Assembly: GCA_002299835.1 (NCBI GenBank)
Contig: DBNT01000114.1
Location: 1,123 to 65,122, forward strand
Length of the DNA: 64,000 nt
Direction: 5' to 3'
DNA from: Nitrospiraceae bacterium UBA665
GTDB lineage: Bacteria > Nitrospirota > Thermodesulfovibrionia > Thermodesulfovibrionales > Dissulfurispiraceae
This document shows positions 1,641-64,000 of this stretch, piece by piece. Within the stretch, counting starts at the first letter, position 1; each line of letters starts with the position of its first letter. A model generated the notes under the pieces. It worked only from the letters and a program-made list of their open reading frames with translations. It had not been told where the DNA came from and searched no databases. Position numbers and translations under genes: made by a program.

Positions 1641-1788
1641 CGTCTTTAACTTCTCGCCTTACTTCATCATCAGTTTTACTGAGGTCGTTAAGGAGGAAGT
1701 CCTTCAGGTCGTTTTCTGTCTTAAAGGAGTTGAGTTTGTCGCACATCTCATTTACAACTGCATGTAGGATGTCTCTTTTCTCTGTCAT
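1600..1788 (-). CDS. hypothetical protein, leaderless
   Basis: 62-aa ORF whose ATG lies 8 nt downstream of the P2 -10 box. Confidence 0.5.
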   Translation of the reverse strand: MTEKRDILHAVVNEMCDKLNSFKTENDLKDFLLNDLSKTDDEVRREVKDAIREAEQSHLPPY

Positions 1789-1796
1789 ATATCTAA

Positions 1797-1825
1797 TATA
1801 TAGGCTTTTGAGACAGAAAAGTCAA
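1797..1825 (-). promoter_or_regulatory. sigma70-type promoter P2
   Basis: Minus strand: CTTGACTTTTC with TTGACT, 17 nt, TATATA, 8 nt, ATG. Confidence 0.6.
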
Positions 1826-1843
1826 GCAGTCGAGGAAAAAAAG

Positions 1844-1972
1844 ATGAAAAAAAGAATTAAATTAAGACTTCCTATTAAGGAAATTTTAATCCTGAGAAAG
1901 AAAAGCATAGTCCCTAATCAAAAAAAGCAAGCAGACAAGCATGCTTGCAGAAAAAAAGTTAAAGGTAGTTAA
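1844..1972 (+). repeat. copy A of a duplicated module: a 42-aa Lys/Arg-rich micro-ORF or a structured RNA
   Basis: AAATTAAGACTTCCTATTAAGGAA..TTAATCCTGAGAA..AAAAGCATA...GCAAGC..GCTTGCAGAAA is shared with 33046..33180. Frame and length are conserved. Confidence 0.45.
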
Positions 1973-2045
1973 GGAAAGGTAGTTTTTGTTTTTATCAAAC
2001 TACAGCCCTTGGCTGTAGAAAACAATAGTTATCGGGAGGATCGCT

Positions 2046-2189
2046 ATGAGTCGACTGTATAAAATGCTATTTAAAAACAAAAACAAAGAGGATATCAAAG
2101 TGAGATGTGGTAGAGACCTGTATTTTGCTCTCCGCAGAAATTTCCGTATCTCCGCTGTTACAGCCTATCGCATCGCAATGTCCCAGTAG
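2046..2189 (+). CDS. hypothetical basic 47-aa protein
   Basis: GGGAGG RBS 6 nt upstream of the ATG. Below the ORF-track length cutoff. Confidence 0.35.
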   Translation: MSRLYKMLFKNKNKEDIKVRCGRDLYFALRRNFRISAVTAYRIAMSQ

Positions 2190-2294
2190 CTATCTGTGAC
2201 TTCGTTTTAAAAAATCAGTTTCGCTCCTATATCTCAATCAAACCTTTGGTTTGATCTGATAAGGACATCTTTGCATTTTTAAGGAGGCTCGCTT

Positions 2295-2672
2295 ATGTCA
2301 AGGATAGGTGCTATACAAGAAGTGGTGTCCTCGGACGCCACTGCATTAAAGTTGCTGGACAGCGTAAAGTCCGCTGTAAGACGTTACTCCGAGGTGATAT
2401 CCACGATGGAGATGCGTCTTAAGAGCGTGCGATATCGCCTTGAAGGTCAGGATATGATAGATGCATTTATGATGCTGGACAGCAACAGGCACGTCGCACA
2501 CAATTCACTGATAGATTCAATAAAAATTGCCAATAGGTATCTGTTCAAAAAATATGGCACAGATACCATCCCTGTCGGTGGTGTATATGACAACGACCCG
2601 TTGCATCTTAAATATACTAACAGGGAAGCTATCGGCGAATGGGCGATCACAGTGGCTAAATACGTCAACTAA
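2295..2672 (+). CDS. hypothetical protein, paralog of 6423..6800
   Basis: AAGGAGG RBS. Shares HxAHNxLIDS..I.NRYLFK.Y...P.GGVY.DDPLHL...NR.AIG.WA with 6423..6800. Confidence 0.7.
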   Translation: MSRIGAIQEVVSSDATALKLLDSVKSAVRRYSEVISTMEMRLKSVRYRLEGQDMIDAFMMLDSNRHVAHNSLIDSIKIANRYLFKKYGTDTIPVGGVYDNDPLHLKYTNREAIGEWAITVAKYVN

Positions 2673-2839
2673 AAAGATGTTGCTCCCTCTACTATAAGGT
2701 CAGTCAAAAAAAACTGGCTGACCTTATTATTTCATTCTTTCTCATAGCTTATTGATTTTTTGCCTTAATTGTATTATACTTTTAGTGTTACGCTGTTAGT
2801 ATTATACACAAGGTGAGAATAAGAAGGAGGTTTAAACAG

Positions 2840-2868
2840 TTGACAATTAGTGTTCAAAAGTATATATT
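2840..2868 (+). promoter_or_regulatory. consensus sigma70 promoter upstream of the recombinase gene
   Basis: TTGACA, 17 nt, TATATT. Confidence 0.55.
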
Positions 2869-2887
2869 TTATCATAAGGTGTTATTG

Positions 2888-3487
2888 ATGCTAATAACTA
2901 TAAAATATATACGTGACTATTATAGTCTAAGCCGGATAAGCCTTATCAATTGGGAAAAGCAGGGATTGCTCAAACCATATTACACACCCGGAGGCCGCAG
3001 GCGTTATAAACGTGAAGACATAGAACACTTGTTGGGCATAAAGAAAGAATCGCCTGTCAAGCCTGCTGTAGTCTGTTACGCCCGTGTATCTACCGCCAAA
3101 CAAAAAGACTATCTCGATAATCAGATGCAGCGATTAAAAAGTTATTGCAAAGCTAAAGGCTATCGGGACTATCACATAATATCTGAGATAGCGTCTGGCG
3201 TCAACGAGAACAGGCGAGAGTTAAGGACGCTGTTGAATATGGCAAAGCGAGGAGAGGTAAGTAAGGTTGTTATTGAGTATGAAGACCGTCTGGCGAGGTT
3301 CGGTTATGAATATCTTAAGGCGTATTTCAATTCCTTTGGCATAGATATAGAGGTTATTAACGGAAATGAACACGAGGACGCTCAAAAAGAGCTTGCCGAA
3401 GACCTTATAGCAATGGTCACATCGTTTGCCGCAAGGATATACGGCAAGCGTGGAGGTCGCAAGATCAAACATGAACAAAAAAACTGA
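2888..3487 (+). CDS. tnpA: IS607-type serine recombinase (MerR-like HTH plus resolvase catalytic domain)
   Basis: N-terminal HTH (YSLSRISLINWEKQGLL). YARVSTAKQ catalytic-serine motif. The start is uncertain between GTG 2813 and ATG 2888. Confidence 0.8.
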   Translation: MLITIKYIRDYYSLSRISLINWEKQGLLKPYYTPGGRRRYKREDIEHLLGIKKESPVKPAVVCYARVSTAKQKDYLDNQMQRLKSYCKAKGYRDYHIISEIASGVNENRRELRTLLNMAKRGEVSKVVIEYEDRLARFGYEYLKAYFNSFGIDIEVINGNEHEDAQKELAEDLIAMVTSFAARIYGKRGGRKIKHEQKN

Positions 3488-5057
3488 CGGGACTATCATT
3501 GCAACTATCACAGGTATAATCAGTCCGCAAAGCGAAAGCGACATTGCCGATATATACGGACTAATGTCTGATTCTTCCTCTGCAAAGAAAATGGCTTTCA
3601 ACAGGATAGTTAAAGACGGCGTTGATGACAGGGGCGCAATAGAGAGATACATCAGACAGCGCATCCCGACTTTTAACACCCGCTATGCAAGAGACGCTAT
3701 AATCGAGGCTCAGGCAATAATCTTATCCCAGAAAGAGCTTCTGCCTATGTATCTTCAGAATACACAAAAGAAACTCAAAAAATCTGTTGCAAAACTTGTA
3801 GATTATGTAACAGAGGATAAAAAACCTAAAACTGACCTTTTAGTAGCTCTAAAGGGATTATGTAACAGAATCGGAAAACTGAAGTCTCGCATTACTGAAC
3901 TTCAATCGCATATTAACAACGGAACTATCCCAAACATTGTGTTTGGCGGAAAGAATAATTTTAAAAAACTACAAAAAGGTCTTATCTCAAGAAAACAGTG
4001 GAAAGATCTAAGAACCAACAGCTTTTACAGTAGAGGGGATGCATCCAAGCAAGGCAATCTTCATACACGTCTGTATTACAACGAAGCTGAAGACTCTTTC
4101 AGGATTAGGCTTTCTATCCCCCAGGATAAAGGCAGATGTAAATATATCTATTGCCCTGTCTCAATAGCCTCGGCTAAAAGGCATAAAAGCAGGCGGGAGA
4201 CACTTATATCGGCTGTGCAAAACAATGCCTCTTACTCAGTGCGAATTATAAGGCGTAATTCAAATATTGAAGCTCATATCACTCTTGATGAGGTTATTTA
4301 CGGCTCCTTCGTTAAGAAAATCCCCGAATCCGTAACCACTATCGCAGGGATAGACCTGAATACAGACAGGCTGGCAGTAACGCTGTCTGATTACAAAGGC
4401 AACTTCATTAGGCATAAAACATTTTATTGCCATGACCTTGAGCATTGCAGGACAGGGCAGAGAGACTTTACGATTAACCATGTCGTGAAGGAGATGTTTG
4501 AATGGCTTACAACTAATCATACAGAGGTTGTTGTTATTGAGCGACTTGATTTCAAGCAGGACATGGACACCAATGCATGGCTTAACCGTTTCAGGTCTAA
4601 CTTCACTTATAGTAAGCTGCATAAGGCTATCACGCGGAAGGCGCTCAGAACAGGTATGTTCATTAAGACCGTTAATCCGACATATACGTCTCAAATAGGA
4701 ACGCTCAAATACGCAGCGCAATACGGCATGGCAAGGCATGAGGCTGCCGCTTATGTAATAGCACGCAGAGGACTCGGATATAACGAGCGTATTCCTAAAA
4801 GGATTATCCAAAATCTGCCAGACATTATCAGTACTCTGATCCAGAAAGCTTCAGGCGCTAAGGAAGCAGCCAAAAAAAAGCTCACGGCTCATATTAAAGT
4901 CTTAAAACAGTGGAAAGCTTACTCTCCGGTAAGCACTATCCATAAGTGGAAGTTGTGGTCTTTGCTGTATCAAAGCCTACCATGCCCTGTGTTTCCTATG
5001 GAAGGAATAGCAGGGGTAAGTGGTCAGGCAGCTCCCCTAACAGGGGCCGGTCCATGA
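3471..5057 (+). CDS. tnpB: TnpB-like protein, atypical C-terminus
   Basis: GIDLN (RuvC-I), VVIERL (RuvC-II) and NPTYTSQ are present. No Cys zinc ribbon, and RHEAAAYVIARRG sits where DxNAAxNI is expected. The last roughly 35 codons are GC-rich and probably read through an RNA. Confidence 0.7.
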   Translation: MNKKTDGTIIATITGIISPQSESDIADIYGLMSDSSSAKKMAFNRIVKDGVDDRGAIERYIRQRIPTFNTRYARDAIIEAQAIILSQKELLPMYLQNTQKKLKKSVAKLVDYVTEDKKPKTDLLVALKGLCNRIGKLKSRITELQSHINNGTIPNIVFGGKNNFKKLQKGLISRKQWKDLRTNSFYSRGDASKQGNLHTRLYYNEAEDSFRIRLSIPQDKGRCKYIYCPVSIASAKRHKSRRETLISAVQNNASYSVRIIRRNSNIEAHITLDEVIYGSFVKKIPESVTTIAGIDLNTDRLAVTLSDYKGNFIRHKTFYCHDLEHCRTGQRDFTINHVVKEMFEWLTTNHTEVVVIERLDFKQDMDTNAWLNRFRSNFTYSKLHKAITRKALRTGMFIKTVNPTYTSQIGTLKYAAQYGMARHEAAAYVIARRGLGYNERIPKRIIQNLPDIISTLIQKASGAKEAAKKKLTAHIKVLKQWKAYSPVSTIHKWKLWSLLYQSLPCPVFPMEGIAGVSGQAAPLTGAGP

Positions 5058-31836: not shown

Positions 31837-32949
31837 TTGAAAATATCAGTAGAAAAAGATGAATTACAAAAAAGGCTTAGTAACATTCAGGGCGTAGTAG
31901 AAAGAAATAACTCAATGCGCATTCTGAATCACTTTCTTTTAGATGTTAGCAAGGAAGGCAGCTACACCATAGCAACAGACCTTGAGACCGCTTTTCAAGA
32001 GCCGATAAGCGTGGAGGTAGTAGAGGAAGGCAAAATATGCATTCCAGCTAAAAAATTATTTGAGATAGTAAAAGAGATGGAAGGGCAAATAGCCCTTGAA
32101 TCTGAAGACCCTCAGTGGTTAAAAGTCAGGAGTGGAAAAAGCCTGTTCCGCCTTGCCTGCTTATCTTCGGACAATTACCCGGCATGCCCATCCATAGAGG
32201 GCGCCGAGGAGATGGAGATAGAAGCCCCTATGCTTCTTGAGATGATAGACAGGTCGCTTTACACTGCAGGCAGCTCGCATGATCACAAATATTTTTTAAA
32301 TGGACTGTTATTTCATATGAAGACTGACGGCACGTATATAGTTGTCGGAACAGACGGATTCAGATTGGCGATGCAGACAAAACAAACCGGTTTGTCATTT
32401 AAAGAGGAAAGAAAAGTAATGCTATCAAAAAAGTCGGTGTCTGAATTAAGACGACTTCTCAGTGGCAAAACCATTGAAGAATCTCCGACTGTAAGTATGA
32501 CCATAGGGAAAAACCATGTACTCTTTAATATTGGCAAGGCAAAGTTTTTAACAAAGCTTATAGAAGGCGCATATCCTAACTATGAGGCTGTAATTCCAAC
32601 AAATAATACCAAAATATTGACCGCAGCCAGAGGCACGCTCATGAAGTCGTTAAAAAGGGCGTCAATAATGAGCAAAGAAGGAATCAGTACTGTCAAGGTT
32701 AATATAGAAAACGGTAAGGCGGTGGTCTCTGCAAATTCTGACTTAGGAGAGGCTACAGATGAGATTGCCGTAGATTATGCAGGAGACCAGATGACCATAG
32801 CCTTTAATGCCAGATACATATTGGATGCATTAAATGTAATAACATCAGAGAATGTCCTGATAAAGCTTAACGAACCATTAAGTCCTATACTACTGATGGA
32901 AGACGGCAGAGAAGATTATAAATGTGTCGTTATGCCCATGAGGTTTTAG
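31837..32949 (+). CDS. dnaN: DNA polymerase III beta sliding clamp
   Basis: 370 aa. N-terminus MKISVEKDELQKRL..., C-terminus VVMPMRF. TTG start after AAGGAG. Confidence 0.85.
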   Translation: MKISVEKDELQKRLSNIQGVVERNNSMRILNHFLLDVSKEGSYTIATDLETAFQEPISVEVVEEGKICIPAKKLFEIVKEMEGQIALESEDPQWLKVRSGKSLFRLACLSSDNYPACPSIEGAEEMEIEAPMLLEMIDRSLYTAGSSHDHKYFLNGLLFHMKTDGTYIVVGTDGFRLAMQTKQTGLSFKEERKVMLSKKSVSELRRLLSGKTIEESPTVSMTIGKNHVLFNIGKAKFLTKLIEGAYPNYEAVIPTNNTKILTAARGTLMKSLKRASIMSKEGISTVKVNIENGKAVVSANSDLGEATDEIAVDYAGDQMTIAFNARYILDALNVITSENVLIKLNEPLSPILLMEDGREDYKCVVMPMRF

Positions 32950-57930: not shown

Positions 57931-58502
57931 GAACAAGTTTTGCAATTGCATTAAAAATAAAAGCTAAGCATGGGATATTGCAAAAATTCATTGATGAAAT
58001 GAATTGGACGCAAAGTGATTTTGCACGCGCACTTGGATTGCAACAGTCAATTGTTGGATTATGGTTCAACATGCAAGATTACCCCCGTAGCCCAGAAACA
58101 ATGGAGAAAGTTTGTCGTCTCATAGGTAAAGCCCCTGAAGAAATATTCCCGAAGTTTTTGAGCGACCCAAAATTTCTTGGAATGAAAAAGAAATGGACAT
58201 TATACCGTGAAGTTGACCTTGAATTTTTGCCTTTCAACGAAGTCCCGGAATTGGAATATACGCCTGATATGGACAGCTTTGATGTGAAAGACAAAATAGC
58301 AAAGGTATTAAAAACATTGTCGCCGAAAGAGGAAAAAGTAATCCGAATGCGATTTGGGCTTACGGATGAGGAGACTGAACATACATTAGAAGAAATAGCG
58401 AAAAAACTTATTATCTCACGGGAACGCGTAAGGCAGATTGAACAAGAAGCGATTAGGAAACTACAACATAGTTCAAGAAGCCGAATATTGGAATGCCTAT
58501 AG
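57927..58502 (+). CDS. HTH protein with a sigma-70 region 4 domain
   Basis: N-terminal XRE-like HTH ([20 protein letters not shown]). C-terminal [27 protein letters not shown]. Confidence 0.7.
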
Positions 58503-58533
58503 ATTAGATAGAGGTTTTCCGCTTTATAGGATG

Positions 58534-59031
58534 GACATAATGGACAACAAGAGATACAAAGTAACTTATAAGTTACTCTATCCTTTTGTGATTCTTGACA
58601 GCAGACAGTCTTACGATTCTCTTCTGGCATGGTCTGCCTTTGATATGCTCCAAAGAAATGGCGAAAGGATAACTAGCCCTAACGAGATTATAAGCATCAT
58701 AGACAACCTGCCTGTCAAAAAAGTGTTTTATAACGACATCCATTTCTATGCGACATCAAGTCCTATAGTAGATGCTATATTGACCCAAAAAACCACGATA
58801 TATAAGTCGCTCACGAGATATAAACAGTTTTCTGTCAGTATGGATATATTGCATGTCAAGGAAGTCTCTTATCTTGCCGATGTAACCGACTTTGAGTTGT
58901 TTAAGGATCTGGCGGAAAACATAGGATATATTGGAAAAAAGAGGGCGTTGGGCTACGGAAGAGTTATGGATGTCTCTATCTGCCCTACTGATGAGACTAT
59001 CAGCAGGATTGCGACTATAGCAGGATTATGA
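58534..59031 (+). CDS. hypothetical protein with a RAMP-like glycine-rich loop
   Basis: Beta-strand-like N-terminus YKVTYKLLYPFVIL. C-terminal IGKKRALGYGRV resembles the Cas6/CasE G-loop. The start is uncertain. Confidence 0.4.
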   Translation, partial: DIMDNKRYKVTYKLLYPFVILDSRQSYDSLLAWSAFDMLQRNGERITSPNEIISIIDNLPVKKVFYNDIHFYATSSPIVDAILTQKTTIYKSLTRYKQFSVSMDILHVKEVSYLADVTDFELFKDLAENIGYIGKKRALGYGRVMDVSICPTDETISRIATIAGL

Positions 59032-59172: not shown

Positions 59173-59460
59173 ATGAAAACAAAGTCCATAGTAGCATTGC
59201 TGATTATCATTGCATTCACAGTAGGCGCAACAGGACTTGCATTTGCTACAAAGAATGTAGCCGGCAAGGAGACAGCTGATATCAGGGGAACCGTCACAAA
59301 GATTGAAGACAATAAGATAACCGTGAAAGTCGCAGACAAGAAAGAGACAACTGTAGAAGTTAAAAAACTTCCGGAAGGTCTCAAGATTGGCGATAGAGTA
59401 GTAGTTAAAGATGGAGAAGTGACAAGGGAAAGACCAAGAAGGGTCATAGAAGGATGTTAA
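59173..59460 (+). CDS. secreted hypothetical protein
   Basis: AAGGAGG RBS. Signal peptide MKTKSIVALLIIIAFTVGATGLAFA. Confidence 0.6.
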   Translation: MKTKSIVALLIIIAFTVGATGLAFATKNVAGKETADIRGTVTKIEDNKITVKVADKKETTVEVKKLPEGLKIGDRVVVKDGEVTRERPRRVIEGC

Positions 59461-59515
59461 ACAATCTATTGGGCTATAGGCTGTAGGCTCTACCTATAGC
59501 CCAGCGAGGAAAAAC

Positions 59516-59824
59516 ATGAAAACAGTTGTAACAATAATGGCTGTTTGGATTGCAGTTGTATTTATAGGAAGCACTTTTGCATCGCCGCCAGGTAGAAATG
59601 TTGAATATGCAGGGGGCGGAGCAGGCAAGGTTATCTTTGACGGAAGAGTCCATGCTGACCAAAAAATCAGATGTGCTGACTGTCACCCTAAGATTTTCAC
59701 AATGAAGAAGGAATCAAGGATGACTATGGCAGATCATAACGCTAATAGGTTCTGTTTTGCCTGTCATGACGGTAAAAGGGCATTCAGCGCAGCAAATAAT
59801 TGCGCTAAATGTCATAAGAAATAA
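59516..59824 (+). CDS. triheme c-type cytochrome (c3/c7 family), periplasmic
   Basis: Signal peptide and three CxxCH motifs (CADCH, CFACH, CAKCH) in about 100 aa. Confidence 0.8.
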   Translation: MKTVVTIMAVWIAVVFIGSTFASPPGRNVEYAGGGAGKVIFDGRVHADQKIRCADCHPKIFTMKKESRMTMADHNANRFCFACHDGKRAFSAANNCAKCHKK

Positions 59825-59866
59825 CAACTCTACAGGCGGCTGCGGATTGAAACATTGGAGGTTTCT

Positions 59867-60280
59867 GTGATAAAAAAGATTGCGCTTGTTGCGCATGATA
59901 ACCTAAAAAATGACCTTATTGAATGGGCAAAATATAATAAAGATGTCCTTATGTATCATGAACTCTATGCCACAGGGACAACGGGCTCAATTTTATCAAA
60001 GTCGGTTGGTCTTTCAGTCCATTGCTTTAAAAGCGGACCTCTCGGAGGGGATCAACAGATAGGGGCAAGGATTGCCGAAGGCGATTTAGATATTCTGATA
60101 TTTTTCTGGGACCCCTTGGAGCCTCATCCTCATGATGTTGATGTAAAGGCTCTTCTCAGAATTGCAGTGGTATATAACATACCAGTTGCATGCAACCGGT
60201 CTACTGCTGATTTTATCATATCTTCTGAATTAATGCATGTAAAATACGAAAGGAAGCTAACGGAGGTAAAAAATGTTTAA
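59867..60280 (+). CDS. mgsA: methylglyoxal synthase
   Basis: [31 protein letters not shown] and [10 protein letters not shown] motifs. GTG start after GGAGG. Confidence 0.85.
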
Positions 60281-60707
60281 AAAACTAACAACTCTATTCA
60301 TAGTCGTTTTAATATTAACTTTGTCGGCGGGTTGTGCCACTACGCATCATGGTCAAGGTGCAGGAGCAGGCGCTGTATTAGGCGGTGTAGCAGGGGCGCT
60401 TCTTGACGGGGGGAACCCGTGGCGTGGGGCAGTTATAGGTGCAGCCATTGGGGGCGCCGCAGGATATACATTAACAGACATATCCGTCAGGGCGTCAAAA
60501 GAGGCTGCTGCATCCGGAAGACCTGTTGAATACAGAACACAGGACGGCAGAACCTTCCACCGCGCTGAGCCTGTTGGCGGCTTTCATCATCCAGATGCTC
60601 ATACAAGATGCAGGAAAGTTCATGAGAGAACATGGGAAGATGGCAGATTAGTAAGGGATAATGTACGGGAAGTTTGCGAAAGCACAAAAACAGAAAGAAG
60701 ATACTAA
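60273..60707 (+). CDS. lipoprotein with a glycine-zipper segment
   Basis: Lipobox [21 protein letters not shown]...[13 protein letters not shown]. Confidence 0.65.
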
Positions 60708-60772
60708 TATTAGAGCAACAGTTATTAGGGGAGCATCAGGTGGATTGAATCATAATATTTAGTAGCACTAAG

Positions 60773-60830
60773 TCATAACCCCGGAGGCAGTATTCTTTGG
60801 ATATTGCTTTCGGGGTTTTTTATTTTTGAA
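60773..60830 (+). repeat. GGCAGTATT hairpin element copy 3, terminator-like
   Basis: CATAACCCCGGAGGCAGTATTCTTTGG...TCGGGGTTTTTTATTTT has the same layout as the 25107 and 27960 elements. Confidence 0.45.
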
Positions 60831-60845
60831 AAAAGGAGTCTGCCA

Positions 60846-61307
60846 ATGTACACAATAACTAGACAAAAGCAATGGACTGAAGGCAATCCAGTTGTAGAGG
60901 TTTCATACGGCGGAATTGACTACTGCAACCCAGATGCCCTTGCAAAAAAATATCCGGGAGAGTTTGAAGAGTTCAGTGACCCTCGGAAAGCTATAGAAAC
61001 TGCCATAGCGATTTGCCTCGCGTGGAGAAAGGACGGAGAAAGGAAAGCAAAAGTCGGCATCGGCAGCACTGGCGGCATGACAATGCCTTTTGAAACCTGC
61101 ACGATTAAGCAAGCACAAAAATGGGCAGAAGAAGAATATAAGACACTTCCTAATTGCCCACAGTGCGCCAAAATTATGGAGAAAAACCAAGAAAAATGGT
61201 CAATAGGATTTATAACCAAAGACGGCGAATTTATCTCTTATGAAGAGTATATCTATTGTTCAGAGTATTGTGCTGAGAAAAACTACACTTATGAGGAGGA
61301 CAATTAA
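60846..61307 (+). CDS. hypothetical protein with a zinc ribbon
   Basis: AAGGAG RBS before ATG 60846. CPQC...CSEYC. Confidence 0.55.
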   Translation: MYTITRQKQWTEGNPVVEVSYGGIDYCNPDALAKKYPGEFEEFSDPRKAIETAIAICLAWRKDGERKAKVGIGSTGGMTMPFETCTIKQAQKWAEEEYKTLPNCPQCAKIMEKNQEKWSIGFITKDGEFISYEEYIYCSEYCAEKNYTYEEDN

Positions 61308-61805
61308 ATGGGAAGAGGAAGCCTGTATAGATATGAACACTATATGCTTTTTGACTCTAATGAACATTTTGGATACGAAGCAATATCCTGTCACTGTTGT
61401 GAATACCAAGAAGTTTTTTACGGATACAATGAATCACCTAACATGTGCCCAAACTGCGGGAAGAAACTCAATGTCTCTTACGAATTTGACAACTTTTTCT
61501 ATGAAGACTTCAAAGCACATGTTGCACTCTTAACTAAAGCAGACAAGATTGCTAAATGGATAGATAGAGAAGCCTATATTTTTGCAGAAACTGAAAAAAT
61601 GGAAATAGGTATAGACACAAGTGGAGGACTGACGGCTCTGTTCGTCAAGCCCAAAACATATTTTCATAACTTTTCTGAAGAAGAAAAAGAGTATACCATT
61701 CACAAAATAGTTAAAAAGGCATTCAACAATCTCATCAAAGAATACAAAGATATGTTCAGAAGTCCAACATCAGCATGGACTTCTGAACATATAACCCAAT
61801 ATTAG
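61308..61805 (+). CDS. hypothetical protein with a zinc ribbon
   Basis: TAAATG junction. CHCC...CPNCG. Confidence 0.55.
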   Translation: MGRGSLYRYEHYMLFDSNEHFGYEAISCHCCEYQEVFYGYNESPNMCPNCGKKLNVSYEFDNFFYEDFKAHVALLTKADKIAKWIDREAYIFAETEKMEIGIDTSGGLTALFVKPKTYFHNFSEEEKEYTIHKIVKKAFNNLIKEYKDMFRSPTSAWTSEHITQY

Positions 61806-61821
61806 GAGACATAGAAAACAA

Positions 61822-62358
61822 ATGATCATTGACCAAAAAACTACCGAAAAATACGAAACACTTGAAAGGCTTATCAACGGCGAAAAGGTCGAAAGCCTTA
61901 AGCCAATAATCGAGTATTTAAAAGAAGGTATCAAAAACGACAAGGAATTCTACAATTTCTTGCTCGCCAAGTATCCGCCTGTCGTAATACTCACAGACAC
62001 AATTGGATATAGAGAACTTCTGCTTGTAGAATGGATGGGGAAAATATATCCGTGCTGGACAACGGGACATAGCAACAAAACAGTGCCATGCTTTTCAAAA
62101 CCGCCGATTCCGTTTGCAACCATCCATAACGGTAAGGTTTATGGAGCAGAGGGTAAAAACCAATACTGGGATCAAGATAAATTTGAAGGAGTCAGCACCA
62201 TTGAGCAATTCAAGCAAAGAATTAAAGAACTACAGCAAGAGGCTGAGGACTACATAGAAGCCCTAAGTTTCAATTCAGAACACAAGACAATAGAAAATGC
62301 AACATCTTCAGAAATAGTCAAGCCAGAGACAACAATAAAGGCGCAAACACTTTTTTAA
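61822..62358 (+). CDS. hypothetical protein
   Basis: AGGAG RBS. 178 aa. Confidence 0.55.
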   Translation: MIIDQKTTEKYETLERLINGEKVESLKPIIEYLKEGIKNDKEFYNFLLAKYPPVVILTDTIGYRELLLVEWMGKIYPCWTTGHSNKTVPCFSKPPIPFATIHNGKVYGAEGKNQYWDQDKFEGVSTIEQFKQRIKELQQEAEDYIEALSFNSEHKTIENATSSEIVKPETTIKAQTLF

Positions 62359-62369
62359 AGGAGGCGATC

Positions 62370-63059
62370 ATGTTGCTGTGCGACTTTCATATCCACACAA
62401 AATACTCCGACGGTTCTGTGGAGTTAAGGAAGACAATTGATATTTTTGGACAGGCAGGGTTCGATGCAATCGCAATAACAGACCATGTTGTCAATGGCGA
62501 TAACTTCATCGGAAAACTCGCCCATCGTTTAAAATTATCAGTTACAGCAAAGAATTTTGACGAATATATGTCCAATGTAAAATACGAGGCAGAAAGGGCA
62601 TGGAATAAGTATGAAATGCTTGTAATACCTGGAGTGGAAATCACTAAAAACTACATTGCCCCTGGCAAATCAGCCCATATCCTTATCATTGATGTAAAAG
62701 AATTTATCCCTGCCTGCCTGAAATATGAAAAGATCTTTCTTGAGGCAAAACAGCAGAATGCCCTTATAGTTGCATGTCATCCGCACAACATGTCGGATAT
62801 AAGCATGGACACCTTATTTTTATGGAATAACAAGGAAAAATATGCCAGATACATAGACGCATGGGAGATTGCCAATAGGGATGATGTATTTAATGTAGTA
62901 AGCCTTAAAAAATATCCATATATTGCAAACAGCGATTTTCACAAGGCAAGACATCTGTATTCATGGAAGACATTACTTAACTGCGAAAAAGATGTTGAAT
63001 CAATTAAAAATTGCATAAAGCATAATAAAGGAGTAGCAATAACACTTTTTAGAAATTAG
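62370..63059 (+). CDS. PHP-domain metal-dependent phosphoesterase
   Basis: CDFHIHTKYSDGS, AITDH, ACHPH and NSDFH motifs. AAGGAGG RBS. A terminator hairpin follows. Confidence 0.75.
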   Translation: MLLCDFHIHTKYSDGSVELRKTIDIFGQAGFDAIAITDHVVNGDNFIGKLAHRLKLSVTAKNFDEYMSNVKYEAERAWNKYEMLVIPGVEITKNYIAPGKSAHILIIDVKEFIPACLKYEKIFLEAKQQNALIVACHPHNMSDISMDTLFLWNNKEKYARYIDAWEIANRDDVFNVVSLKKYPYIANSDFHKARHLYSWKTLLNCEKDVESIKNCIKHNKGVAITLFRN

Positions 63060-63172
63060 GAAGGAGGAATGAGTAAGGGCAGGGTGGCATTGCTTTGCAA
63101 CGCCTTGCCCTTGTATTTTTATTAGTGCTAAAAAAATTTGGTTTTTTACCAGTCCTATCTTACTGTGTGTTT

Positions 63173-64000
63173 GTTTCAATCCTTGTTTTATTGGAAGTAG
63201 CTTTCAGACAGAAAGAACATGAAAAAGGCAGAAATGATAACAAAATGTTTCAATCCTTGTTTTATTGGAAGTAGCTTTCAGACCTTTGCCTTGTAATCGC
63301 CTGCGCTTGTCCTAACGTGATGTTTCAATCCTTGTTTTATTGGAAGTAGCTTTCAGACCGAAAGAAATGCAGAAAATGGAAAAAGATATAGTTCAGTTTC
63401 AATCCTTGTTTTATTGGAAGTAGCTTTCAGACCTGCAAGGTTAAACATTTTAGATAGCATTCTGATAGTGTTTCAATCCTTGTTTTATTGGAAGTAGCTT
63501 TCAGACTCTCCTTTTTCTCAGCGATGTGATCGGTATATCTGGTTTCAATCCTTGTTTTATTGGAAGTAGCTTTCAGACAAAATAGCCAAAAGTCCGGAAA
63601 GTTTCGGTTTTACTCGTTTCAATCCTTGTTTTATTGGAAGTAGCTTTCAGACAAAAAGACGCAGTAGGACATATCCTTATCTCGAAAGAGTTTCAATCCT
63701 TGTTTTATTGGAAGTAGCTTTCAGACCTCTAACAAAATTCGGCTTGGTGCGGACTTAGATATGTTTCAATCCTTGTTTTATTGGAAGTAGCTTTCAGACG
63801 TCACGATAGTAGCAATCGTCTATGGCGAGATATCGTAAGTTTCAATCCTTGTTTTATTGGAAGTAGCTTTCAGACGAGACAAGATACTCCAAGCCAGTGA
63901 GACAGTCGATATGTTTCAATCCTTGTTTTATTGGAAGTAGCTTTCAGACAACAAGATAACAGCTATACTCAAGCACATGATCAGGTTTCAATCCTTGTTT
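63173..64000. CRISPR. CRISPR array: 11 full repeats plus 1 truncated by the window edge, 37-nt repeats, 11 spacers of 35-39 nt
   Basis: Invariant repeat GTTTCAATCCTTGTTTTATTGGAAGTAGCTTTCAGAC at 63173, 63247, 63322, 63396, 63470, 63542, 63616, 63690, 63763, 63839, 63913 and 63985. All spacers are unique. Confidence 0.95.

Follow-up and report, generated by a model that had tools for sequence, protein, structure and literature searches.

A CRISPR array at the edge of a Nitrospirota contig window is most probably the trailer half of a complete locus that joins a type I-D effector to type I-B-like Cas6 and adaptation proteins

In this study, the direct repeats at the right end of the window, the 64,000-nt stretch of DNA that was analysed, were investigated together with the whole contig and the source genome. 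The window covers positions 1123-65122 of contig C92 (DBNT01000114.1; 83,834 bp), so that a window coordinate plus 1122 gives the C92 coordinate, and the source genome (G000) comprises 2.02 Mb in 173 contigs at 40% GC. We observed that the 37-nt repeat, GTTTCAATCCTTGTTTTATTGGAAGTAGCTTTCAGAC, is identical in all copies of the window and the contig, and that the 11 spacers of the window are all unique, 35-39 nt long and without mutual similarity. Eleven identical repeats with unique, regular spacers exclude chance as their origin. The whole array consists of 21 perfect repeats and 20 unique spacers, also of 35-39 nt, at C92 64295-65804, and the window shows approximately half of it. The original prediction had described twelve invariant repeats with unique spacers of 35-39 nt, the last repeat cut by the edge, and this description stands as eleven full repeats and 16 nt of a twelfth. 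Additionally, the Rfam family CRISPR-DR7 (RF01320) recognised all 21 repeats on the minus strand, with 39.2 bits against a gathering score of 37. The repeat folded no better than shuffled sequences (-1 kcal/mol, z = +0.97) and has no stable stem-loop. A CRISPR array is defined by direct repeats of 23-55 nt, at least three in number and nearly identical, with unique spacers of similar length between them, and such repeats are displayed here together with an adjoining leader and cas1/cas2 (Table 1).

Table 1. Coordinates of the array, its flanks and the cas operon (W, window coordinates; C92, contig coordinates)
Feature	Position	Strand	Remarks
PHP-domain phosphoesterase gene	W 62370..63059	+	not cas
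Trailer flank	W 63060..63172	.	GC-rich hairpin, then T-run; no conservation with relatives; not leader
Trailer (old) half of array, sp1-sp11	W 63173..64000	-	repeats and Rfam CRISPR-DR7
Trailer-most (oldest) repeat	W 63173..63209	-	perfect sequence; adjoining flank not conserved among relatives
Full repeats in window (n=11)	W starts 63173, 63247, 63322, 63396, 63470, 63542, 63616, 63690, 63763, 63839, 63913
Twelfth repeat	W 63985..64000	-	16 nt present, remainder cut by window edge
Repeats 12-21 and spacers sp12-sp20	beyond window, up to C92 65804	-
Leader, 237 nt	C92 65805-66041	-	conserved in three genomes; new spacers enter beside it
Spacer-like unit in leader, 32 nt	C92 65805-65836
Degenerate repeat in leader	C92 65837-65873		15/37 mismatched
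cas4	C92 66042-66740	-	ends 237 nt from last repeat
cas2	C92 66737-67027	-
Four-helix-bundle gene	C92 67101-67415	-
cas1	C92 67516-68499	-
PIN/VapC-like gene	C92 68511-68933	-
cas6b	C92 69216-69938	-
cas5d (csc1)	C92 69942-70685	-
cas7d (csc2)	C92 70685-71479	-
cas10d	C92 71466-74045	-	859-aa HD protein
cas3'	C92 74042-75640	-

Left of the array, we detected the PHP-domain gene, of which a second copy with 93% identity lies on contig C56, and three small proteins without significant family match, one of them with a sub-threshold match to Urm1. A glycine-zipper lipoprotein, a methylglyoxal synthase (MGS) and a cytochrome c7 are encoded farther left. These neighbours are not Cas proteins, and the original prediction had judged the PHP-domain protein and the three small proteins correctly. 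The hairpin and T-run of the trailer flank, read by eye, are likely the terminator of the PHP gene. The genes at window 59173-63059 (a 95-aa secreted protein, cytochrome c7, MGS, the glycine-zipper lipoprotein and PHP) have DNA copies elsewhere that are 78-91% identical, on contigs C59, C34, C67, C56 and C74, and judging from this similarity they look like host genes copied onto the element that carries the array. A 197-aa ORF at window 58438-59031 gave no Pfam match at E <= 0.01.

On the right, extension beyond the window revealed a complete minus-strand cas operon that reads toward the array, and the leader and cas genes which, according to the original prediction, might lie there were both found. 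The transcriptional order is cas3'-cas10d-cas7d-cas5d-cas6b-PIN-cas1-(four-helix-bundle gene)-cas2-cas4, and since the operon itself supplies a Cas6b, there is no need for a stand-alone processing enzyme. Past its degenerate repeat, the remainder of the leader is approximately 170 nt and AT-rich; a simple scan of the leader gave no sigma-70 promoter, and a search of metagenome contigs with the leader pattern gave no match. Two DNA methyltransferases, a joined XseA-Vsr protein and RecD2 are encoded past the operon. The XseA-Vsr gene (L011:13770-14741, beyond the window) sits between a Dcm methylase and an N6/N4 methylase, and its product of 323 aa, which combines the N-terminal OB/catalytic part of XseA (exonuclease VII large subunit) with a Vsr-like C-terminus, may be an unusual restriction or repair nuclease.

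Two genes inside the operon are not cas genes, and they were compared with the loci of two relatives, the Thermodesulfovibrionales MAG DeMMO5_1 (G027) and the Nitrospirae bacterium FK3.bin35 (G061). The four-helix-bundle gene is 23S-rRNA-IVS/Avd-like, is bordered by short simple repeats on either side, and lies between cas1 and cas2 in both G000 and G061; its homologue in G027 (L015, about 2095-2440) has broken repeats on both sides and is inserted into the array at the trailer end. The gene behaves as a small mobile cassette would, landing in CRISPR loci. The PIN/VapC-like gene, preceded by an ORF of 75 aa, lies together with it between cas6 and cas1, and the PIN protein is 95% identical in G061 despite the different effector there. 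These two may be a toxin-antitoxin pair travelling with the adaptation module.

With reference to the carrier molecule, we noticed that C92 and contig C98 (80 kb) are collinear in a public contig of 174 kb, with 1.6 kb between them, and that C98, the gap and C92 amount to about 165.7 kb from a ParB-like gene to RecD2. A metagenome contig of 165,684 bp starts approximately 430 bp before the ParB-like gene and has the length of C98, gap and C92 together, an agreement based on its start and length, its far end being unread. On contigs of 174-182 kb, the element harbors genes for ParB_N/ParB-like, ALP/ParM actin-like, TraG/VirD4, TrbI and SLT proteins and a T2SS-E ATPase, and a weak Replic_Relax match was also recorded; a plasmid or ICE is recognised by partition, replication or conjugation genes on the same molecule, and such genes are present here. 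No tRNA gene was detected in the 164 kb of the element that G000 contains. The element carries its own rpoC and dnaG, 40-46% identical to the chromosomal ones, as well as sigma factors, dnaN, ribonucleotide reductase and SbcCD-like genes, and recent copies of host genes, including argB (95%), pilB (92%), PHP (93%) and MGS (83%). RecD2 is accessory, being missing in five relatives, one of them a closed genome. The likeness of the molecule to a mobile element, which the original prediction had remarked, is supported by the partition and conjugation genes, the absence of tRNA genes and the extra copies of host genes. This gene content supports the view that the stretch of approximately 166 kb is a plasmid- or ICE-like element carrying the CRISPR-Cas locus near one end. 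CRISPR-Cas systems on plasmids are well documented (Pinilla-Redondo et al., PMC9071438). As in that survey of mobile elements, a complete locus is found on a large element with partition and conjugation genes; unlike there, the only targets found in this study were phage, not other plasmids.

It is unlikely, though worth weighing, that the locus is instead chromosomal, with C98 and C92 being a fixed genomic island or a mis-binned contig of a co-occurring relative, and the array an ordinary host array. The GC content of C92 is that of the genome (40.1%), many element genes are 80-95% identical to genes elsewhere in the bin, and the left edge of the element runs into housekeeping genes, proS and bioB in one assembly and moeA and scpB in another. 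However, partition and conjugation genes, 164 kb devoid of tRNA genes, a RecD2 gene missing from five relatives, and a contig of matching length that starts near the ParB-like gene all argue against a chromosomal position, and so does the ancestral CRISPR site, which is empty in G000. Moreover, at 40-46% identity the rpoC and dnaG copies are paralogues and not another strain's copies, which also speaks against it. The plasmid- or ICE-like element is the more probable reading.

The edges of the element were considered separately. There is no terminal overlap of the contigs; they end in an HU-like gene beyond RecD2, where all assemblies break, and in a dispersed repeat of approximately 130 nt. 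This dispersed repeat (..GTCATTCCCGAAGTTCTTAATCGGGAATCCAG..GCTGGAATGACAG..) occupies C98:1-130, the left edge of the element, occurs on more than 20 other contigs, in many of them at the end, and breaks or mis-joins assemblies. The two chromosomal joins at the ParB end may be assembly artefacts. Differing integration sites were rejected as proof of mobility, as one and the same strain accounts for both flanks and the joins pass through the dispersed repeat, and the contig end past RecD2 was rejected as a physical end of the molecule, as all assemblies break inside the HU-like gene.

Several other genes of the element and the genome were recorded on the way. The rpoC of the element (C98:52555-56490) encodes a full-length beta-prime paralogue of 1311 aa, 46% identical to the product of the chromosomal rpoC on C154. 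A second dnaN (C33:15561-16974) encodes a protein 80-89% identical to that of the window dnaN (window 31837-32949), and approximately 360 nt, perhaps an insertion or an intron, interrupt this gene copy between codons 73 and 96. A 427-aa protein encoded at C98:21466-22749 on the minus strand combines RRXRR (8.9e-73) with HNH in an IscB-like architecture, and on these domains it is a candidate OMEGA-type RNA-guided nuclease. A second CRISPR array, with 21 copies of the 36-nt repeat GTCGCAATCCCTTTTTAATCAGGTCTTCTTTCCAAT, lies beside unrelated cas2 and cas1 genes (C158:1-1475 and 1764-3625), of which cas1 is 28% identical.

The orientation of the array was inferred from five mutually independent lines of evidence. 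Rfam places the repeats on the minus strand, and in that sense they end in GGATTGAAAC. The cas operon is directed the same way. The flank on the cas4 side is approximately 95% conserved among G000, G027 and G061, and the left flanks of the three are unrelated, with broken repeats and insertions in G027 and G061. Near-identical copies of the element were found in other assemblies, and the sister array in one of them (NCBI DAHVJY010000054.1, L022) has 33 repeats, with the 20 spacers of G000 in the same order and 12 extra spacers, all of them between the leader and sp20. Finally, the protospacers described below share a PAM in the minus-strand orientation only. These comparisons indicate a leader on the cas4 side and transcription of the minus strand, as the original prediction had suggested. 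The difference of 12 spacers could in principle be a deletion in G000 and not a gain in the sister, and the PAM and the other lines are independent of which of the two it is.

The leader itself harbors the only degenerate repeat, and orientation tools that take a decayed repeat for the trailer would read this array the wrong way round. A plus-strand reading, in which transcription starts from a leader on the left and the degenerate repeat beside cas4 is a decayed trailer repeat, was weighed for this reason: the diverged half of that repeat, found at the right end alone, faces away from the array, and relatives conserve the unit beside it, a frequent property of old anchor spacers. However, the left flanks are unrelated in the three genomes and carry broken repeats and insertions in G027 and G061, the PAM is consistent in the minus-strand sense only, the Rfam orientation, the Cas6b family, the ATTGAAAC handle and the operon direction are all opposite, and the additional sister spacers, derived mostly from one phage, sit at the right end; we regard plus-strand transcription as very improbable. 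The longer sister array has retained the spacer-like stretch and the degenerate repeat without change, and new units enter downstream of both, so that both are leader sequence. They are probably a fossil repeat-spacer unit. The 32-nt stretch beside repeat 1 is the better conserved of the two, ahead of the degenerate repeat.

For the typing of the cas genes, NCBIfam, PADLOC and Pfam were compared, and their assignments of the helicase and of the small effector subunits coincided. Cas7d (TIGR03157), Cas5d (TIGR03159) and Cas3' (TIGR03158) were all above cut-off, Cas7d also matching the PDB entries 4TXD (Csc2) and 7SBA (Cas7d), and Cas3' gave no HD-domain match and is helicase-only. The assignment of Cas10d was less direct. 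Its sequence profiles were weak (PADLOC Cas10d at 3.6e-6, over the HD region), a sequence search of the PDB gave no match, NCBIfam did not call it, and Pfam called only an HD domain. Among its 57 homologues, the annotations listed were those of hypothetical or HD-domain proteins. An alignment including 22 of the 57 showed invariant HD residues and a CxxC..CxxC pair, and the AlphaFold2 model built from the homologue alignment reached a pLDDT of 84 and a pTM of 0.79. In a Foldseek search of the PDB with this model, the best five matches were all Cas10d (7SBA_I at 5.5e-13, 7SBB_I, 6THH_C and two chains of 6YES), each with probability 1.00 and with 9-14% identity. On the modelled fold, it is clear that the signature gene of type I-D, cas10d, is present in a very divergent form. 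The set by which type I-D is recognised, a Cas10d with HD domain beside Cas7d/Csc2, Cas5d/Csc1 and a helicase-only Cas3', is found complete at this locus.

The processing and adaptation proteins displayed a different affinity. Cas6 consists of Cas6b_N and Cas6b_C domains and matches the Cas6b of Methanococcus maripaludis (PDB 4Z7K) at 4.7e-43, and the best models for the adaptation proteins were Cas1b (8e-145), Cas2b and Cas4b. As judged from the profile matches, the effector is of type I-D, and Cas6 and the adaptation proteins fit type I-B models. Cas6b processes repeats that do not form stem-loops, and the repeat of this array, having no stable fold, fits such processing.

Comparatively, the locus has the gene order cas3'-cas10d-cas7d(csc2)-cas5d(csc1)-cas6 in common with the type I-D systems of Synechocystis sp. 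PCC 6803 (CRISPR1 on pSYSA), Microcystis ('TiD') and Sulfolobus islandicus, together with the HD nuclease on Cas10d and a helicase-only Cas3', a 37-nt repeat ending in GATTGAAAC, spacers of about 35-37 nt, and a leader of approximately 200-240 nt downstream of the adaptation genes. The Synechocystis system is plasmid-borne too. Unlike those systems, the Cas10d of this study is just 12-14% identical to the solved ones, Cas6 belongs to the Cas6b and not the Cas6d family, the repeat has no stem-loop, and Cas1, Cas2 and Cas4 best fit type I-B models. Characterised type I-D systems exhibit a GTN/GTH PAM, Cas6d, stem-loop repeats and an 8-nt 5' handle (PMC10212523); of these features, the present locus has the predicted handle in common with them, besides the architecture of the effector. 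The type I-B system of M. maripaludis resembles the locus in its Cas6b, Cas1b, Cas2b and Cas4b families, and presumably also in its AUUGAAAC 5' tag and a 37-nt repeat without structure; the locus differs in having no cas8b, cas7b, cas5b or fused Cas3.

Targets were identified for the spacers of the sister array. Seven of its 12 extra spacers match an inovirus-like contig of 3.9 kb (JGI 3300031922), five of them perfectly and two with one mismatch, on both strands, and two of the seven also match a variant contig of 1.9 kb. The 5' flanks of the protospacers in the minus-strand sense read TTG, TTG, TTA, CTA, TTG, TTA and TTA, and the seven 3' flanks show no motif. Type I systems use a 5' PAM, and from these flanks we infer a 5'-TTR PAM, shared by the seven protospacers in the minus-strand orientation only. 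Such a PAM differs from the GTN/GTH of characterised type I-D systems (PMC10212523), the PAM being outside the definition of the subtype. The 3.9-kb contig encodes a replication protein, an Ace/g6p-type minor coat protein and an inovirus morphogenesis ATPase (PHROG 197, 9e-29), the homologues of which contain Pfam PF05707. The 1.9-kb variant additionally codes for a protein of 64 aa that has a signal peptide and a single membrane helix and by eye reads as a typical major coat protein. On this gene content, the target is identified as a filamentous phage. The seven matches to its contig signify that the locus takes up spacers under natural conditions and protects against phage. At least seven spacers from one small genome suggest a burst of acquisition, perhaps a primed one. 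One protospacer in the variant contig (L029:1060-1095, against L030:1580-1615) shows CCA where the PAM was CTA, and mismatches its spacer three times, at positions 1 and 2 and once at a more internal site; it is possibly a CRISPR escape variant.

The 20 spacers of the G000 array gave no target in the host genome, in the phage and plasmid collections or in the two inovirus contigs, so that the search proposed in the original prediction for self-, phage- and plasmid-targets returned nothing above chance for these spacers. In detail, a search for self-targets in the whole G000 assembly, with the 20 spacers, the spacer-like unit of the leader, the 12 new spacers and the array spacers of G027, G061 and C158 as queries, gave just chance matches of <=20 nt. 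No spacer matched the GenBank phage collection, and the matches to PLSDB plasmids, at E = 0.1-0.9 only, were judged to be chance or repeat-to-repeat. Five 22-nt spacer seeds, three of them from the 20 G000 spacers, gave no match in IMG/VR. The array spacers of C158 had no match in the genome or the inovirus contigs. Extension of the inovirus genome through homologues of the ATPase led to a nearest homologue just 47% identical.

The absence of cas genes inside the window and the likeness of the molecule to a mobile element had led to the reading of an orphan, cas-less array, borne by a phage or plasmid and directed against rival mobile elements, which is now hardly credible: the array lost its cas genes only to the window edge, a complete operon starting 237 nt past it on the same contig refutes the orphan status, and the only identified targets, reached through seven spacers of the sister array, lie in a filamentous phage, with no spacer matching the plasmid collection above chance. 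The reverse case, which the original prediction had named as its own refutation, a host array targeting the element, does not describe the locus either, as the cas genes and the leader are on the element itself and no spacer matches the element. The array is thus taken in what follows as part of a complete locus borne by the element.

The loci of G027 and G061 placed this arrangement in its context. The repeat of their arrays is one position off that of G000, and the leader is in common. Protein identity to G000 is 91% for cas1, 94% for cas2, 81-88% for cas4 and 58% for cas6b. Their interference genes are of type I-B, with a Cst2/DevR-type Cas7 and Cas5t in G027 and Csh1/Csh2/Cas5h in G061, each accompanied by a fused HD-helicase Cas3, and neither genome harbors a Cas10d homologue. 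The type I-B signature (Cas8b, Cas7b, Cas5b and HD-helicase Cas3) is absent from G000 and present in both relatives. No internal spacers are common to the three arrays. The locus of either relative is flanked by tsaD on one side and by a conserved gene of 303-316 aa on the other. The matching chromosomal site of G000 (approximately C146:8045-8212) is empty, with the two genes nearly adjacent and no repeat remnant.

Taking these observations together, we are confident that the repeats of the window are the trailer half of the 21-repeat array of a complete class 1 CRISPR-Cas locus, with a minus-strand leader, Cas6b, an I-D Cascade and I-B-like adaptation, on a plasmid- or ICE-like element of approximately 166 kb. 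The anatomy of the array, its cas content, the position of the leader, the end at which spacers are added, and the phage protospacers with their PAM were observed. In the mechanism that we propose, the array would be transcribed on the minus strand from the 237-nt leader between cas4 and the array, and Cas6b would cut the unstructured 37-nt repeat 8 nt before its 3' end, leaving crRNAs with the 5' handle AUUGAAAC. The crRNAs would load into a type I-D Cascade presumably assembled from Cas10d, Cas7d and Cas5d. The divergent Cas10d would recognise TTR, the complex would recruit the Cas3' helicase, and the HD nuclease of Cas10d would destroy DNA with the 5'-TTR PAM. New spacers would be inserted by Cas4-Cas1-Cas2 where the leader meets the first repeat. 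The locus would provide adaptive immunity for the element and its Thermodesulfovibrionales (Nitrospirota) host, with filamentous phage as the documented target. As an immune locus it is ordinary, apart from a few unusual details.

The exchange of adaptation and effector modules is an established theme of CRISPR-Cas evolution. Here one unit of repeat, leader, cas6b and adaptation genes occurs with three interference modules, I-D and two variants of I-B, a clear natural example of modules being shuffled. By implication, the divergent Cas10d accepts crRNAs and a TTR PAM that are selected by type I-B machinery. The two near-identical copies of the element, 12 spacers apart at the leader end, record at the same time that an uncultured subsurface lineage has naturally acquired spacers against an inovirus. 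Beyond this, we put forward tentatively, as somewhat less than an even prospect, that the conjugative element of approximately 166 kb took over the chromosomal array, leader, cas6b and adaptation unit of the host lineage and coupled them to a very divergent I-D effector that uses a non-canonical TTR PAM, so that the former site beside tsaD is now empty in G000, and the two relatives retain the unit with two different I-B effectors. If true, this would be a natural three-way effector swap on one chassis of adaptation genes and array, and it would provide a subsurface Nitrospirota host with immunity against filamentous phage.
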